Positions 112 to 10,700 of a stretch of DNA of 64,000 bases are shown here, one piece after another. Source of the DNA: Desulfobacteraceae bacterium UBA2156 (lineage in GTDB: Bacteria > Desulfobacterota > Desulfobacteria > Desulfobacterales > UBA2156). Positions within the stretch are counted from its first letter, which is position 1, and each line of letters begins with the position of its first letter. Under the pieces are notes generated by a model that was not told the DNA's origin, ran no database searches, and saw nothing but the letters and a program-made list of their open reading frames with translations. Both the position numbers and the translations under genes were made by a program. The stretch is taken from the NCBI GenBank assembly GCA_002328165.1, contig DCWS01000032.1:1673-65672 (forward strand), written 5' to 3'.

Positions 112-701
112 GAAAATAACGTCCGGAAGGGATTTTTTGAGCATGGAGATTTTTTAGCCTTACGAAGAGCTTTACCACCATACCTAAAAGGATTTACTAT
201 ATTTGGCTATAAAGTAGGATGGCGCCATTCAGAAATAGCCGCATTAAGCTGGAAGCTGGAGAAACTAAAAACGACGATGCACGAACAGTCTACCTCGACG
301 AAGAACTAAAAGAGATATTTCAAAAGCAATGGGATCAACGTGCAGACCGACAAAAGCTATTGCCTTATGTATTTGTGAACCAAGAAGGAACTAATGACAT
401 TACACGATTTGACAAGGCTTGGAAAAGGGCCTGCAAAGACGCTAAAATTGGAATAAAGCATTTTCACGATTTGAGGCGAACGGCATGCCGCAATATGATT
501 AGGGCAGGGATACCCGAACGTGTGGTAATGATGGTGAGCGGACATAAGACAAGATCTGTTTTCGACCGTTATAATATTGTTAATGATGCTGATTTAAAAC
601 TTGCTGCCCAAAGACAAGAGATATACATTCAAAGCCAAATGGGCAAAGTTTCGGGCAAAGTTTATGAATTTGAAAAAAACAAAAAAGATATAACAGGCTG
701 A
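112..701 (+). pseudogene. Tyrosine recombinase/phage integrase C-terminal remnant, frameshifted
   Basis: Frame from 112 reads ENNVRKGFFEH...[12 protein letters not shown] (catalytic Arg box) and shifts at tandem AGCTGGA (247-260) into the ORF with GETKN, HDLRR, SGH and DRYN motifs; N-terminus absent. Confidence 0.88.
641..663 (+). repeat. Direct repeat GGGCAAAGTTT x2, possible integrase arm-type site
   Basis: 11-nt repeat at 641-651 and 653-663 at the integrase 3' end, about 55 nt before the tRNA. Confidence 0.5.
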
Positions 702-716
702 TTTTACAACAAATAT

Positions 717-790
717 GGGGTGTGGATCGCCATGTGATCGTGTGGACTCTAAATCCACATAGCCGGGTGCAACTCCCGGACACCCCACCA
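717..790 (+). tRNA. pylT: tRNA-Pyl (anticodon CUA)
   Basis: Acceptor GGGGTGT/ACACCCC, single linker nt, D-stem GATC/GATC, 6-bp anticodon stem TGTGGA/TCCACA with loop CT-CTA-AA, 3-nt variable region, T-stem CCGGG/CCCGG without TTC, encoded CCA; pyl operon 3 kb away. Confidence 0.96.
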
Positions 791-3259: not shown

Positions 3260-3825
3260 CCAAAGCTGAGTTGCCCAACAACTTCAACCAAGGAGGTAAC
3301 AAATGAGTTGATTTCGAAAATTAGTACAAACTATATGGCACTGCCAATATCATGTTGTATGGGTGTCCAAATACCGTTTCAAGATTCTGACGGGCAAAGT
3401 TGCGAAGATGGTGGAGAATTGCGTGAGAGCCTTTTCGGAGCAACGAGGCTGTGATGTTCTTGAACTGAATGTTCATATTGTTGTGACGGTTCCCCCCCAG
3501 GTGTCGATATTGGACTATGTGGGTATGGTCAAAGGGAGAACGGCAATTCGTATTTTTAACAAATTACGTCATTTGAAAGAAAAGCCCTATTGGGGCAATC
3601 ATTTTTGGACAAAAGGTTACTGTGTCGATACCGTAGGGCTGGATTCAGAAATGATCCAAAAATATGTCAAGCACCGAGATGATAAGGACAAAGAGTAAGA
3701 AAACATAAGAACAAGCAAATCAAATATCAAGGGCAACTCAACCTTGTCCCTTTTGGGGGAAAGGCAGTTTCATCCCCTTCCAGGGGTTAAATCAAAGCCG
3801 GCCCCTCCGGGGTCGGCTTTTTACT
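3260..3825 (+). mobile_element. IS200/IS605-family element remnant
   Basis: tnpA-like frame followed by subterminal hairpins (CCCCTTCCAGGGG; GCCGGCCCCTCCGGGGTCGGC); ends approximate. Confidence 0.8.
3303..3698 (+). pseudogene. tnpA: IS200-family Y1 transposase, inactivated
   Basis: MS*FRKLVQTIWHCQYHVVW.KYR...KGRTAIR..YWGNHFW.KGYCVDTVG..KYV; TGA at codon 3 and HUH motif shortened (ELNVHIVV). Confidence 0.9.
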
Positions 3826-3871: not shown

Positions 3872-4714
3872 GTGGATATTGGGTGGACAGGAGTTCAAGA
3901 CAGACGGTTAAAGGAACTGGAGGCGCCGGCGGATGAGCTTGACAGGCGGTTTAGCAGCCTTCAAGATCGTGAACGGTCTTTTCAGTCTTTAGATAAAAAA
4001 CTGGTAAAACAGCACCGCCGGCGATTGACGGAATTTAGAGAAATTCATCTCAGGCCGGGATTTTGCAGACTCGAAACCCGGCTAATCGAGGTGCTGGGTA
4101 AAAAGGGATTTGTTCAAGTCGCCACTCCGATCATCATGTCCAAGGGACATCTTTCAAAAATGACGATTACAAAGGGCCACCCCCTCTTCGACCAAATTTA
4201 TTGGCTTGATCATAACAAATGCCTACGCCCCATGCTGGCGCCCCATCTATATTTTGTGTTGAAGGATTTTCTTCGAATATGGGATAAACCGATTCGAGTA
4301 TTTGAAGTCGGTCCATGCTTTCGAAAAGAATCTCAAGGAGCTCGACATTCGAATGAGTTTACCATGCTCAACCTTGTGGAAATGGGTTTGCCGGCGGAGG
4401 AGAGAAATGAACGGATTGCCGAACTCGCCGCCGTGATTGTCGATACAGCAAAGGTGGGTGACTACCGGTTAAAAGCCGAAAGATCTGAGGTTTACGGCGA
4501 CACCATTGATATTGTGGCCAACGAGGGTGACGTGGAACTAGGGTCGGCTGCCATGGGTCCCCATCCTCTAGATCGAGCATGGAAGATAACAGACAACTGG
4601 GTTGGAATTGGATTCGGAATCGAACGGTTACTCATGGTCGCGAAAAAGAGCCACAACCTTCATAAAATGGGAAGGAGCCTCTCCTATCTCGATGGCCATC
4701 GCCTGAACATATAG
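3872..4714 (+). CDS. pylSc: Pyrrolysyl-tRNA synthetase, catalytic C-terminal subunit
   Basis: WT..Q.RRLKEL N-terminus, CLRPMLAP, FEVGPCFRKESQG..H.NEFTMLNLVEMG, GFGIERLL, SLSYLDG.RLNI; ends at TAG. Confidence 0.97.
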   Translation: MDIGWTGVQDRRLKELEAPADELDRRFSSLQDRERSFQSLDKKLVKQHRRRLTEFREIHLRPGFCRLETRLIEVLGKKGFVQVATPIIMSKGHLSKMTITKGHPLFDQIYWLDHNKCLRPMLAPHLYFVLKDFLRIWDKPIRVFEVGPCFRKESQGARHSNEFTMLNLVEMGLPAEERNERIAELAAVIVDTAKVGDYRLKAERSEVYGDTIDIVANEGDVELGSAAMGPHPLDRAWKITDNWVGIGFGIERLLMVAKKSHNLHKMGRSLSYLDGHRLNI

Positions 4715-4755
4715 ATACGAAAAGGGGTGCACATTTCGTTCAATTGTAAACACAT

Positions 4756-5865
4756 ATGAACTCTTCCACTAAAAAACTTGAAACCATATTGGCCAAGGCA
4801 ACTGGCGGTCAATCGCTTGAAAAGGAAGACCTGATTTTTCTTTTGGGAATCGATGATAGGGATCAACTGGAAACCATTTTTCGTGTTGCCAGAAATTTGC
4901 GCCATAAATATTTCGGCGATAAAATTTTTTTATACGGGTTCCTTTACATCACTACCTATTGCAAAAACGATTGCCGGTTTTGCTTCTTCCGAAAATCCAA
5001 TACAGCAAGCAGGCGATATCGAAAAAAGGATCAGGAAATCGTCTCGGTCGCCGGCCGGATGGCCGAATCCGGAGTTCATCTGATTGATCTGACCATGGGA
5101 GAAGATCCGGCTTATTTCAACCGGAGAATGAACGGTTTTGAGAAGCTTCTTAATCTGGTGACAACGCTCCGTCACACCACCGGCTTGCCGGTCATGATCT
5201 CACCGGGCGTGATGCAGGATGATCAACTGAAAAATATCGCCGAGGCCGGTGCAGGCTGGTATGCCTGCTATCAGGAGACCCACTGCCGTTCTCTGTTCCA
5301 ACGCCTCAGGCCCGGACAAGACTATGATGTTCGAATGGGGGCCAAGCTGGCGGCGCATCAACGGGGATTATTGATCGAGGAAGGACTGCTCTGCGGTGTG
5401 GGCGAGACGCCGGCTGATGTGGCCGAGTCGATTTCGGTGATGCGATTGACCGATGCCGATCAGGTACGGGTGATGAATTTTATTCCTCAACACGGCACGC
5501 CGATGGAAAACCGAACGCCACCGGATTCGATAAAAGAACTGTTGATCAGCGCGGTAATGCGGTTGACCTTTCCGGATAGACTGATACCAGCCTCCCTGGA
5601 TGTGGATGGCCTCATCGGTTTGAGACGGCGGCTCGATGCCGGCGCGAATGTGGTCACATCACTCGTGTTGCCCGGTGGAGGCCTTGCGGGTGTGGCCCAG
5701 CATTCTTTGGATATAGAGGAGGGAAATCGAACCAGCACCCGTGTCATGAGCGTTCTTGAGACAATCGGACTTCGTCCGGCTTCTGTGAAAGAATATATAA
5801 AGTGGATTCAACACCGCAAGAGATCTGTTGAAGAAAACCGGTCAGGGGAGAAGATCGCTTGCTAG
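4756..5865 (+). CDS. pylB: 3-methylornithine synthase (radical SAM)
   Basis: CxxxCxxC (CKNDCRFC), SGVHLIDLTMGEDP, RLIPASLDVDG, RLDAGANVVTS; position in pyl operon. Confidence 0.96.
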   Translation: MNSSTKKLETILAKATGGQSLEKEDLIFLLGIDDRDQLETIFRVARNLRHKYFGDKIFLYGFLYITTYCKNDCRFCFFRKSNTASRRYRKKDQEIVSVAGRMAESGVHLIDLTMGEDPAYFNRRMNGFEKLLNLVTTLRHTTGLPVMISPGVMQDDQLKNIAEAGAGWYACYQETHCRSLFQRLRPGQDYDVRMGAKLAAHQRGLLIEEGLLCGVGETPADVAESISVMRLTDADQVRVMNFIPQHGTPMENRTPPDSIKELLISAVMRLTFPDRLIPASLDVDGLIGLRRRLDAGANVVTSLVLPGGGLAGVAQHSLDIEEGNRTSTRVMSVLETIGLRPASVKEYIKWIQHRKRSVEENRSGEKIAC

Positions 5866-7025
5866 TTGCGGTGGTAGGCGGAAAGCTGCAAGGAATTGAG
5901 GCGGCATATTTAGCGCGCAAAGCCGGCTGGGATGTCAAAGTTATCGATAAGGATTCCGGCGTGCCGGCATCGGGGCTGGGCGGTCTATTCCACCAATTAG
6001 ATGTCACCGCTGAACAGGCGTTGACACCTGTTTTAAATGATGTCGGCTTGGTTATTCCTGCGTTGGAAAATGACGAGGCTTTGAGGTGCCTGGATCGATG
6101 GACCCGGACCAGAAATATACCATTTGCCTTTGATTTGGCCGCATATTCGATATCCTCCTCCAAATTAGCGTCCGAACAAATTTTTTCACGCCTGGGTGTT
6201 GCGAAGCCAAGGCCTTGGCCCGGCTGCCGTTTTCCTGTAGTGGCCAAGCCGAGCGAAGGTAGCGGGAGTGATGACGTACAGATCTTTGATCAACCCGACA
6301 GCGTGAAACAACATCTCAATCGATCCACCCGGGATTGGATTATACAGGAATTTATCGATGGACCTTCCTATTCACTGGAAATTATCGGTAAACCCGGCAA
6401 CTACACGCCTGTTCAGGTGACCGATCTGGGGATGGATAGCCAATATGACTGCAAGCGGGTTATTGCGCCGACAGACCTTTCGGATCATTTGATTCTAGAT
6501 TTTGAAACGCTGTCCATTTCACTGGCCGAGGCCTTGGAATTAAAAGGCCTGATAGATGTCGAGGTCATTTTACATGATAACAGGTTGAGAGTATTGGAGA
6601 TTGATGCCAGACTACCCAGCCAGACGCCAACCGCTGTCTACTGGTCCACCGGCCAAAATCTAGTGCAGATGCTGGGGCAGATTTTTCTCTCAATGCCCCA
6701 AACAGGTGAAGGAAATAGACAGCCTCCCCAAGGGGTCGTTTATGAGCATATCCATGTAACCTCCTGTGTATTGGAAGTGGTGGGTGAGCATATAATGTCT
6801 AACAGCGGTGCGCTTCATGTCTGCCAGGACTTTTTTGGTGCGGATGAGGCGATTACGAATTATGTGCCGGGCAGGGAGGAATGGGTGGCCACATTGATCA
6901 TTTCGGGCAAGGACCGAAAACACGCTTGGGAAAAAAGAGATCGGGTGATAAAAGAAATACAGGAAAAATACCACCTAATAAGATATATAGATTCGTCGCC
7001 AGAACCGATTGAATTGAAACCATGA
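5859..7025 (+). CDS. pylC: 3-methylornithine--L-lysine ligase (ATP-grasp)
   Basis: VGGKLQGIEAAYLARKAG, YDCKRV, LEIDARLPSQTPTAVY.STG, GEHIM. Confidence 0.96.
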   Translation: MLVAVVGGKLQGIEAAYLARKAGWDVKVIDKDSGVPASGLGGLFHQLDVTAEQALTPVLNDVGLVIPALENDEALRCLDRWTRTRNIPFAFDLAAYSISSSKLASEQIFSRLGVAKPRPWPGCRFPVVAKPSEGSGSDDVQIFDQPDSVKQHLNRSTRDWIIQEFIDGPSYSLEIIGKPGNYTPVQVTDLGMDSQYDCKRVIAPTDLSDHLILDFETLSISLAEALELKGLIDVEVILHDNRLRVLEIDARLPSQTPTAVYWSTGQNLVQMLGQIFLSMPQTGEGNRQPPQGVVYEHIHVTSCVLEVVGEHIMSNSGALHVCQDFFGADEAITNYVPGREEWVATLIISGKDRKHAWEKRDRVIKEIQEKYHLIRYIDSSPEPIELKP

Positions 7026-7085
7026 GGGCATTCTACATCCAGCATGAAAGCCGAACCTAAGGGGGCCTCAAAAGGATTCCTTGCT

Positions 7086-7928
7086 TTGACTCGACTGAGA
7101 ACCGGTGATATTGCGGATATTGCTGAAAACCTGGAAAAATACGATGCCGAACTGGTTCTAAAAACAGGGTGCACCCTGCTCGGTGTTGCCTGTGCAGCCG
7201 CTGGGGTGGATGAATCTTTCGTTCGACGCGTATCAAAAGATGTTCTGGTCGGTATAGTTCCAATCACCTCGGGCAAAGGGATCATTGCTGGGTTTTCCCA
7301 TGCGGTGGAACGTATCGTGAAGCATATCGGTTTTAGCGCGTTTGTCACAGAATCATCGGATGTGGCAGGACTGGTCGAGGCATTTGATAAAAAGGCCGAT
7401 GTCATCATGCTGTCGGATGATGAGCGCTTTGTCGCGATCCATGTCAGATCTCAACGGGTGGTGAATAATGAGGATGCCACAGGAAAAGGATTTGTTTCAG
7501 GATTGAGCCTGATGACCCGAAGCTTAAGCAATCGAAATGTTCTGGTGGTTGGGTGCGGTCCGGTGGGTCAAAGTGCAACGATGGCGCTGATCGGGCTTGG
7601 CGCCGTTCCCGGGGTGTTTGATGTGGTTCAACGTCGGGGTTATGATTTGGCCGAAACGATCCAGCGCTCGCAATCCGTAAAAATCCGGGTTGAAAACGAT
7701 TTGAATTCGGCACTGACAACATACCGATATATCATCGATGCGTCACCTGCGCGGGATATTATCAACCGATTCCATGTGAGAAGCGATACTTATATTTCTG
7801 CTCCCGGTATGCCAACCGGTCTGAATGCCGGCGCACTGAAAAAACTATCCGGTCGTTATCTGCACGACCCGCTTCAAATCGGTGTGGCCACGATGATCGT
7901 GGAGGTAACAGGCGAATCAGGGAACTGA
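7086..7928 (+). CDS. pylD: 3-methylornithyl-N6-L-lysine dehydrogenase
   Basis: Likely TTG start (MTRL) after AAAGGA; PITSGKGIIAGFS, SDVAGL, GCGPVG, SAPGMP, HDPLQIGVATM. Confidence 0.95.
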   Translation: MTRLRTGDIADIAENLEKYDAELVLKTGCTLLGVACAAAGVDESFVRRVSKDVLVGIVPITSGKGIIAGFSHAVERIVKHIGFSAFVTESSDVAGLVEAFDKKADVIMLSDDERFVAIHVRSQRVVNNEDATGKGFVSGLSLMTRSLSNRNVLVVGCGPVGQSATMALIGLGAVPGVFDVVQRRGYDLAETIQRSQSVKIRVENDLNSALTTYRYIIDASPARDIINRFHVRSDTYISAPGMPTGLNAGALKKLSGRYLHDPLQIGVATMIVEVTGESGN

Positions 7929-7966
7929 TCGAATTTGCACGTGAACCCAAGAAAAAAAGATAACCG

Positions 7967-8335
7967 ATGAATCCGAAAGAAACCGTGAAAAAGCAGATCA
8001 AAAAATACTATCGCAAACGGGTGGAACTTTTTCGGCTTATCGATAAGATAAAGTTGTGGCCATCGCGAAAGGGGGTTCTCCACGGCATCAAGATCATTGA
8101 TAAGATGGGGGATAGGGCCCGGATCACCACCCATTGTAACAAAACCTTTATGGTAACAAATTCAAGGAACAGCCGTGCAGCCAGATGGCTGAGAAATAAA
8201 TGGTTTGAGGGGGTCTGCACGCACTGTGCGGTTCCGGAATGGAAATTAGAAAAATATTCTTCAACCCGGTTTAAACGTCACTACGGATCTTTACTCCTTA
8301 ACACAGATGAAAAGAAGGGCTTTGTAGAAAATTAG
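7967..8335 (+). CDS. pylSn: Pyrrolysyl-tRNA synthetase, tRNA-binding N-terminal subunit
   Basis: YYRKRV.LF.LIDKIKLWPSRKGVLHGIK, THC, NSRNSRAARWLRNKW...C..C.VPEWKLEKY. Confidence 0.96.
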   Translation: MNPKETVKKQIKKYYRKRVELFRLIDKIKLWPSRKGVLHGIKIIDKMGDRARITTHCNKTFMVTNSRNSRAARWLRNKWFEGVCTHCAVPEWKLEKYSSTRFKRHYGSLLLNTDEKKGFVEN

Positions 8336-9176: not shown

Positions 9177-10700
9177 TTAAAACTGCTCGATTTTCCGTTT
9201 TGATTCATCCACGTCATCGTTTTTATCCATTCGCTCTTTTGCATCAAATGCCTCAACAACTTCTCTAATTTCTCGGGCTGCATTGTCGGGCAAAGGCAAC
9301 GGTTTGTGATTTTGGAGGATATCCATTGCCGCTTCATAGGCGCGCTCTTGTATGGCTTTACCCCGGGTCAATTCCACCCAATCCTTTCGATTTCGCCGGT
9401 CGAACAGGTTGGACCGGGATTGGTTTCGCATATGCTTTAGGGAAGTGTCATGGGTGATGTAAGTGCCATCGGATCCAACTTCGTGGATAACTTCCACTGC
9501 CAGGTTTTCATCTGTGACCGAAATGCCCTGGGTGGCAACCTGAATCATCCTCATCATTTCAGCATCCATGATGAGCTTTGCGAGATCGAACGTTAACCCC
9601 TGTTCCAGAACGCCGGAACCGAACAAAATGTTTCCACCGGCAAGTGCGCTGAGGGTGGTGCTCAGCGTAAATTCGTAACCGGACTGGATATCCGGTTTTT
9701 TACTATCCGATGCCCCGCCGCCGACAAAGCAGGGAAGCCGGTAGTATCGTGCCAATTTCGCAACAGACGCATTTATCATCCCATATTCAGGCGAACCGAT
9801 GGATGCGGTTCCAAATCTCAGATCTAAAATAGTGCTGGTACTTCCGTAGGTGCATGGCGTGCCTTTTCTGGTTAGCTGGGCCAAAGCAATGCTGCTCAAT
9901 ACTTCAGCATTGTGGGTCACCAGCACACCTGCCAGCGTGGGCGGTGATGTCCCTCCGGACAGCCCCATCGGCAGTATTAAAATTCCCATCCCCGACGTGG
10001 CCGCCTCCATGATCAGTTCGCATTCATTCCCCGGTAGACCAAGTGGGCTAAGGGGACTGACACTAACGGTAAAAATAGGTCGCTTTTGAAAAATATCATT
10101 CCCTCCCACACAGAGGGATGCCAGTTCGATCATGCAGTTTATAGAACGTGCAGAATCAGCGCCAAGGAAAATATGATTGCCGGTATTTGTCAACATTGCC
10201 TCAAAGTTATGAACAGATTGGGTTTCATTCTGCATGTCCATTGAATTAACACTCCGCTCAACCACGCAGATTTCATTCAGATAGTCACTGATCCGGGCAA
10301 TATCACCGCAGTCTTTCTTGGTGGCGAGTCGAATCTCCCGTGTAACAGGATCAATAATGTTAATACATCCCCCAAATGTTGTAAAACCGATGCGGTTGGG
10401 TTCCGAAACGTAATCATCATTTGGATTTCTGGCATCATACACAACTGTCCGCGGCGCGTAGAATGCGCACTCTTCGACAAGGTATGGCGGAATTTTGACG
10501 ATGCCGTACCCATTAAACCGCTCAACAGAGGCACCACCACCATGGAAGATTTCCAGGGCCGCTTCGCTCATAACCTTTATACCGGTATCCTGGAGAATCT
10601 GAAGGGTCGCGTCGTGTATCGATTCAAGCTCATCGTGTGAGAATGCATATAACCCGAAACCTGCAGTTGAATCGATACCGCTCTTGATACTTCTCCTCAT
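9177..10700 (-). CDS. Trimethylamine methyltransferase (MttB) family protein without pyrrolysine
   Basis: IHDATLQIL, GGTSPPTLAG.L..HNAEVL, GSPEYG, SDSK.PD.QSGYE; uninterrupted ORF with GCA (Ala) at the Pyl-equivalent site. Confidence 0.93.
   Translation of the reverse strand: MRRSIKSGIDSTAGFGLYAFSHDELESIHDATLQILQDTGIKVMSEAALEIFHGGGASVERFNGYGIVKIPPYLVEECAFYAPRTVVYDARNPNDDYVSEPNRIGFTTFGGCINIIDPVTREIRLATKKDCGDIARISDYLNEICVVERSVNSMDMQNETQSVHNFEAMLTNTGNHIFLGADSARSINCMIELASLCVGGNDIFQKRPIFTVSVSPLSPLGLPGNECELIMEAATSGMGILILPMGLSGGTSPPTLAGVLVTHNAEVLSSIALAQLTRKGTPCTYGSTSTILDLRFGTASIGSPEYGMINASVAKLARYYRLPCFVGGGASDSKKPDIQSGYEFTLSTTLSALAGGNILFGSGVLEQGLTFDLAKLIMDAEMMRMIQVATQGISVTDENLAVEVIHEVGSDGTYITHDTSLKHMRNQSRSNLFDRRNRKDWVELTRGKAIQERAYEAAMDILQNHKPLPLPDNAAREIREVVEAFDAKERMDKNDDVDESKRKIEQF

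Follow-up and report, generated by a model that had tools for sequence, protein, structure and literature searches.

A sole-copy bacterial tRNA-Pyl gene with an A73 discriminator base, paired with a class S PylSc of ordinary motif 2 loop length

The single tRNA-Pyl gene of Desulfobacteraceae bacterium UBA2156 (genome G000, 98.8% complete) has A instead of G at the discriminator position, 73. The gene lies in the window, i.e., the whole 64,000-nt stretch of DNA analysed here, which is part of contig G000:C38. The tRNA belongs neither to the canonical G73 type nor to the short-loop type of HMET1 (Ca. Methanohalarchaeum thermophilum) and looks, by its sequence, like a functional class S tRNA-Pyl. 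Judging from related genes, A73 is a recurrent bacterial trait that comes without the known compensating change. The explanation that we favour, with modest confidence, is a relaxed reading of the discriminator by class S PylRS, which would accept A as well as G.

The tRNA gene and the two features discussed first are as follows.
717..790, + strand: pylT, tRNA-Pyl(CUA), 74 nt, CCA encoded (ARAGORN and sequence reading)
729..735, + strand: D-loop GCCATGT, 7 nt, ordinary for the order (sequence reading)
787..787, + strand: A73 discriminator base, also A in G002 and in six metagenome contigs

The 7-bp acceptor stem (717-723/780-786) starts with G1:C72, and G724 is the sole base connecting it to the D-stem (725-728/736-739). 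The D-loop (729-735) contains no GG, and hence no G18G19, and the D-arm is followed by G740. The anticodon stem (741-746/754-759) has 6 bp and encloses the loop CTCTAAA (747-753); the variable loop, TAG (760-762), has 3 nt. The T-arm occupies positions 763-779, and its loop, TGCAACT, lacks T-psi-C and retains U54 and A58. A787 (A73) precedes the CCA at 788-790. G1:C72, G10:C25 and A11:U24 are all present. According to the hallmarks given in PMC1851642 and PMC7609411, the anticodon arm, variable loop, connector, loops and identity pairs place the gene in the broad tRNA-Pyl family. It departs from the canonical G73 type of D. hafniense and Methanosarcina in A787 and in a D-loop of 7 rather than 5 nt. 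A preliminary description of this DNA had reported the tRNA-Pyl hallmarks, the A at 787 and the 7-nt D-loop, and ARAGORN and sequence reading confirm all three. The departure from the D. hafniense identity element that it had pointed out is also real, as G73A in that species costs about 100-fold (PMC1851642).

The fold of pylT has a predicted energy of -36.2 kcal/mol (z = -3.5), equalled by 1 of 200 shuffles; in the minimum-energy structure, the D- and anticodon stems are slightly longer than in the canonical cloverleaf. The gene scores 90.5 bits on a tRNA-Pyl RNA model made from 45 pylT genes, the window sequence itself being among the members of the model. Rfam returned no tRNA-Pyl match at the gene, and a Tymo_tRNA-like match only below threshold. 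An identical 74-mer is present in G002, a genome of the same genus, and in metagenome contigs L134, L138, L139, L142, L153 and L129, which rules out that A787 is an assembly slip. No letter other than A was found at position 787 in the three runs covering it, two of which are possibly the source of this DNA.

There is nothing unusual about the D-loop. Among the matches listed, from which 139 distinct tRNAs were parsed, a 7-nt D-loop occurs in 37 of the 123 distinct G73 pylT genes. The same length is found in 16 of 20 order-level regions, 14 of the 16 being G73, and the G73 tRNA L232 carries the identical loop GCCATGT. Class S D-loops of 6-8 nt are, moreover, already in print (PMC7615293, Suppl. 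Note 2). The D-loop, presented in the preliminary description as an unusual feature, was dropped as a novelty on these grounds.

Downstream of pylT, the window carries a complete set of pyrrolysine genes, followed by a methyltransferase gene.
3872..4714, + strand: pylSc, 280 aa, single copy (TIGR02367, 329 bits, cut-off 178)
4756..5865, + strand: pylB (TIGR03910, above cut-off)
5859..7025, + strand: pylC (TIGR03909, above cut-off)
7044..7928, + strand: pylD (TIGR03911, above cut-off)
7967..8335, + strand: pylSn, 122 aa, tRNA-binding domain encoded by a separate gene (TIGR03912, 128 bits, cut-off 51)
9177..10700, - strand: methyltransferase of the MttB family, its Pyl site occupied by Ala and not TAG (TIGR02369, above cut-off; the PYLIS_3 match starts GCA)

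The five pyl genes are arranged in the order pylSc-B-C-D-Sn at 3872-8335, about 3 kb from pylT, and each exceeds its NCBIfam cut-off. PylSc and PylSn are encoded by separate genes and PylSc falls inside the bacterial tree, where its named neighbours are Desulfobacterales; the system is of the split type, class S. ARAGORN, short BLAST and the RNA model each found one pylT in G000 and no second copy, and pylSc is also present once. A TAG codon at the Pyl site was found in one MttB gene (G000:C68) and two MtbB genes (C68 and C54), whose products, when read through, exceed the TIGR02369 or TIGR02368 cut-offs. Since it is the sole pylT of a nearly complete genome that has a full pyl cluster and three TAG methyltransferases, the A73 gene very probably encodes the tRNA-Pyl that works in G000, presumably in charged form.

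The MttB gene at 9177-10700 is a neighbour and not a client of this tRNA. Orthologues with Ala at the Pyl site are found in G002 (L181), G001 (L258) and G095 (L256), and the G002 copy has 2 TGA codons inside the match. The residue at the Pyl site follows sequence identity: all 5 matches at 60% or more have Ala, and 36 of 39 between 38 and 60% have a stop. The Ala proteins form a conserved Pyl-less branch in the neighbourhood of pyl genes and of a corrinoid gene.

The interval between pylT and pylSc encodes a 176-aa ORF (906-1436, - strand) without Pfam or NCBIfam match, conserved in G002; a pyridoxamine-phosphate-oxidase-like gene (1853-2317, + strand), which stays under the Nim cut-offs; and a fragment of an IS200 transposase (3363-3698, + strand). 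Elsewhere in the genome, G000:C69:55735-55832 is a tRNA-Sec gene, so that selenocysteine and pyrrolysine tRNAs are encoded together, as has been reported for Desulfobacterota. A promoter scan gave 16 sites, with 10.2 +/- 3.1 in shuffles, and no site lay directly 5' of pylT. An RNA-library contig (X16) spanning 472-790 ends at the CCA; it was rejected as proof of expression because the library, known from one study and as contigs only, covers most of the stretch. X18 does not reach pylT.

Genome G001, of the same genus, has pylSc (87% identical), pylSn and a TAG-bearing MttB, and no pylT was found in its assembly (93% complete, 610 contigs); tRNA genes are often unassembled. The window pylT lies behind an integrase remnant and 3 kb away from pylSc, with no promoter-like site just upstream, and the neighbouring MttB has lost pyrrolysine. 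The A73 gene might accordingly be decaying, with a true G73 pylT left out of the assembly, or A73 might hand the tRNA to another, host synthetase. We consider this most unlikely, as the RNA model, with 150 candidates scored per genome, detected no second pylT in any of five A73 genomes. In most other A73 groups, pylT lies directly before pylSc, and A73 genes retain the other hallmarks, with stems maintained by compensatory changes.

The region upstream of pylT bears traces of integration.
219..701, + strand: tyrosine integrase C-terminal remnant, its stop codon 15 bp before pylT (PF00589, 60.6 bits, cut-off 27.1)
717..757, + strand: 5' half of pylT (nt 1-41), putative 5'-type att core, duplicated 1,261 bp upstream in G002

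The remnant is the only match of its query in G000, and no 5' tRNA fragment was found in this genome. In G002, nt 1-41 of the tRNA, a stretch that ends just past the anticodon loop, recur in the same orientation 1,261 bp upstream, each copy being preceded by integrase-like remnants. The fragment and the decayed integrase remnants extend over 1.26 kb, below the 2-kb floor of Islander (PMC4383910), and the outer flank is joined directly to a full pylT in L153, as in an empty allele. Of the 3,919 islands in Islander, 159 re-create the 5' half of the target tRNA (PMC4383910), and the layout in G002 resembles that of such elements. pylT appears to be a repeated, rare 5'-type target of a tyrosine integrase. 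The loci concerned are the window (219-757), L155 (G002:C42), L153, L139, L142, L146 and L154, and the flank upstream of pylT varies among near-identical strains. Two further candidate islands were discarded: the stretch in G095 contains no second pylT-like D-arm, and the match in G117 reads like the 3' end of another RNA.

A mobile element attaching at pylT might also have brought in the odd features of the tRNA. The remnant next to the gene and the duplication in G002 point in this direction, as does an integrase-like match less than 400 nt ahead of the gene, seen in 7 of 30 A73 contexts and in none of 160 G73 contexts, although these contexts come from related lineages and are not independent. 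The hypothesis is largely refuted and has very little probability left. The duplicated part is the 5' half, which leaves position 73 on the host side, and L130, L136, L137, L140, L147 and L149 have the same D-loop and A73 with no integrase match; integration therefore does not explain A73. Even taken together, the decay or recruitment of pylT and its remodelling by an element are improbable to a high degree.

A73 is rare, as the preliminary description implied in calling it non-canonical. Among the 56 genomes that matched a relaxed pylT pattern in a set of 401 genomes from the order, 47 have G73, 6 have A73 and 3 have U73; the six A73 genomes, G000 included, are spread over three families. A broad genome scan covering at least 122 loci yielded, among the matches listed, 115 tRNAs (110 G, 3 U and 2 A) after one duplicate was removed and 7 loci could not be parsed. 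A73 was found in 2 of 11 matches in the class of the Aminicenantes genome G401 (201 genomes), while a pattern search across the phylum gave matches in 3 of 401 genomes, none of them a new A73 case. A metagenome scan returned 25 loci, of which 24 are Pyl-shaped; its pattern was strict and restricted to A73, so it gives no frequency. G002, G146, G401 and G515 each carry A73 along with one pylT, one pylSc, pylSn and MttB genes that contain a TAG codon. The window tRNA differs from the G73 tRNA L157 at 6 of 74 positions.

Additional pylT variation was encountered in these scans. The anticodon loop is CCCTAAA, with C for U at position 33, in G515:C274:1397-1440, G583:C61 and G575:C336. CCA is not encoded in L022, L209, L263, L265, L266, L071, L207 and L210, a set that includes five A73 genes and in which CCA addition is required. 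Two pylT copies lie 535 bp apart in L073, and two different pylT genes (L014 and L015) lie on one Desulfosporosinus contig. The 5' half and upstream flank of the L151 pylT resemble those of L131, while its 3' half and downstream flank are of the window type; a G5/A68 mismatch marks it as either an assembly chimera or a real recombinant. L135 contains, at about 95-170, a CUA tRNA-like sequence with A73 that differs in its acceptor stem, has a TTC T-loop and is, by these features, not tRNA-Pyl. A role of A73 as a GlnRS anti-determinant was also considered and rejected: GlnRS is present in 11 of 11 non-G73 genomes and 49 of 53 G73 genomes, and its presence does not discriminate.

The partner enzymes were compared in an alignment of 103 bacterial PylSc proteins (19 from A73, 79 from G73 and 4 from U73 systems, and one without tRNA), which left out ten archaeal rows and one duplicate and in which the label of the G002 enzyme came from its genome. 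The motif 2 loop of the window PylSc, R151-F163, reads RKESQGARHSNEF, against RKESQGAQHLNEF in D. hafniense, with equal length and no gap. It has 13 residues in all 19 A73, 79 G73 and 4 U73 partners, in agreement with the normal length described earlier, and the window loop is identical to that of the G73 partner L168. No diagnostic A73 residue was found, and no column conserved in G73 enzymes is altered across the A73 groups, in this alignment or in an earlier, smaller one; a test of single columns is blind to compensating residues specific to one lineage. The best A73-enriched residues were discarded, as they cover only some of the groups; A183, for example, occurs in 62% of A73 and 1% of G73 rows but in only 4 of 6 groups.

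On the PylSc tree, a quick tree with SH-aLRT support only, A73 arises by five changes, at least three of which are forced by branches whose support reaches 95 or higher. In two places, an A73 group and a U73 group are sisters. Three A73 subclades share one unresolved fork with a well-supported G73 clade of 18 rows. An AU test on an earlier, 88-row tree rejected a single clade for 13 A73 rows (p = 0.013), a subset that was picked after the tree was seen. Metagenome contigs L141, L150 and L152 encode divergent PylSc proteins, 45% identical to that of the window, together with A73 tRNAs. Their motif 2 reads CWRKG for CFRKE, and their clade is sister to a U73 Bacillota enzyme. By sequence, these are the best candidate for a truly altered enzyme.

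Such data bear on whether the specificity has switched, i.e., whether PylSc prefers A73 and rejects G73 by residues outside the loop, making the pair mutually orthogonal to G73 pairs. A73 is fixed in three related PylSc subclades, 63-69% identical to the window enzyme, whose genomes contain no G73 pylT, and the HMET1 precedent indicates that N73 alone can set orthogonality (PMC9071458). On the other hand, no A73-linked residue or loop change is seen, each genome has a single pair and hence no second pair to be orthogonal to, and the 18-row G73 clade emerges from the same fork as the three A73 subclades. The window PylSc is also 68% identical to its nearest G73 partner, above a 55% threshold (PMC7615293), albeit one derived from delta-N pairs. 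We regard a switch as unlikely. An independent origin, in several lineages, of A73-preferring and G73-rejecting PylRS by a second structural route, without loop shortening, is doubtful to the same extent; the best candidates for it, from their sequences, would be the clade of the window and L141/L150/L152 (RKG for RKE). The preliminary description is borne out in part: A73 is real and rare, but the distinct identity class that it proposed is unlikely. The lack of an enzyme feature, the loop shared with L168 and the 68% identity point to tolerance of both bases.

The closest characterized system is that of D. hafniense (PDB 2ZNI, 3DSQ; PMC1851642), which has a split synthetase and the same pylSc-B-C-D-Sn order, and whose PylSc is the best PDB match of the window PylSc (E 2e-97). 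The two tRNAs have in common the G8 connector, G1:C72, G10:C25, A11:U24, the 6-bp anticodon stem, the 3-nt variable loop and U54/A58, and the enzymes have the same motif 2 loop length. In contrast, A73 replaces G73 in the window, the D-loop has 7 instead of 5 nt, and pylT is 3 kb from pylSc; the loop has R for Q and S for L, both of which also occur in G73 partners. A73 is shared with PylRS2/tRNA-Pyl2 of HMET1 and with the MSBL1 'pylTA' (PMC9071458, PMC9630628). These, unlike the window system, are archaeal, have no PylSn and have a motif 2 loop one residue shorter (PMC9071458, PMC9630628). A second, G73 pair coexists in HMET1, whereas the window genome is bacterial and has PylSn, a normal loop and a single pair.

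The class S tRNAs of Beattie et al. (2023; PMC7615293) likewise belong to bacterial split systems, and a note in that work mentions tRNAs 'from both classes' with an A or U discriminator, without specifying the bearers. A non-G discriminator has arisen more than once in bacteria, as the bacterial U73 'pylTU' (PMC9630628) illustrates; the base is U there and A here, and A73 and U73 are the sisters found twice on the PylSc tree. In the available portion of Guo et al. (PMC9630628), which covers 105 pylT genes, A73 is named only for HMET1 and MSBL1, and U73 is reported in three bacteria. One row of their supplementary file 3 has, by eye, the same PylSc and PylSn as the window; the enzyme was thus already sampled, and its tRNA, 3 kb away, probably was not. 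Zhang et al. (PMC9071458) saw A73 in only those two organisms, and no bacterial A73 is named in the available portions of reviews PMC11467909, PMC11764691, PMC9499178 and PMC9976931. In the literature searched, which excludes subscription papers, we found no paper on a bacterial A73 tRNA-Pyl, apart from the hint in the PMC7615293 supplement; no test of N73 preference on a natural class S pair, PMC7615293 in its available portion included; and no source that identifies residues in contact with N73.

In pyrrolysine systems of this type, the tRNA is bound at its elbow by PylSn and receives, through PylSc, the pyrrolysine supplied by PylBCD. By the same course, the window's PylSn would hold the A73 tRNA at its elbow while PylSc adds pyrrolysine made by PylBCD, and the charged tRNA would decode the in-frame UAG of the one MttB and two MtbB genes. 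In this part of the class S tree, PylSc would read position 73 loosely, accepting A or G. Enzymes that strictly require G73 may use the A73 tRNA poorly, which makes one-way, not mutual, orthogonality of the window tRNA plausible.

Several lines of evidence favour such tolerance. Loose reading of N73 best fits a position 73 that has switched repeatedly between G, A and U while the protein shows no visible change, and it also fits the five A73 changes, the A73/U73 sister pairs and the constant 13-residue loop. A73 genomes carry one pylT, one pylSc and TAG methyltransferases and keep the tRNA hallmarks, and the window tRNA is only 6 positions away from the G73 tRNA L157. Tolerance over a switched specificity is further indicated by the absence of an A73-linked enzyme feature, by the loop in common with L168 and by the 68% identity to a G73 partner. 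The bacterial PylSc S-delta I2 is active with the Therm1 tRNA (PMC7615293), which is the A73 tRNA according to PMC11467909, and this activity also argues for tolerance.

Against it, the D. hafniense PylRS, whose loop is nearly identical, suffers its loss of about 100-fold on G73A mainly in kcat (PMC1851642). With the A73 tRNA, none of the six full-length-loop variants of HMET1 PylRS2 worked (PMC9071458), and the Therm1 tRNA is poorly recognised by most class S enzymes (PMC7615293). G73 is kept in 47 of the 56 genomes of the order, indicating that position 73 is not neutral everywhere. The lack of a promoter-like site directly before pylT also weighs against tolerance, as does possible lineage-specific compensation, which would escape the column test. 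The D. hafniense loss, the HMET1 failures, the G73 majority and possible lineage-specific compensation keep our confidence in tolerance from being higher.

The kcat loss on G73A in D. hafniense (PMC1851642) would also fit an enzyme that still prefers G73, for which the A73 tRNA is a weaker substrate partly rescued by PylSn binding. Charging would then suffice for a few Pyl codons and cause less read-through of ordinary UAG stops. The enzyme looks unchanged, and only three genes with a Pyl-site TAG were identified in G000, in line with such attenuation. However, TAG-bearing MttB matches number 8 in the A73 genome G146 and are also many in G002, so that the demand for pyrrolysine is not low there; we judge this reading rather improbable.

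Sole-copy bacterial A73 genes served by normal-loop enzymes, with at least three and probably five origins, indicate that the published A73 rule is incomplete. The natural A73, G73 and U73 neighbours on the tree make the reading of N73 by class S PylRS directly testable. The known archaeal A73 tRNAs are orthogonal to enzymes of classes N, A and B (PMC7615293). Even with an enzyme that does no more than tolerate A73, a bacterial tRNA carrying this base could escape the common G73-dependent synthetases and so provide half of an orthogonal pair, and tolerance of either base could itself be useful in genetic code expansion. If a second route to A73 preference proved true, these lineages would offer ready-made class S pairs that are mutually orthogonal to G73 pairs.
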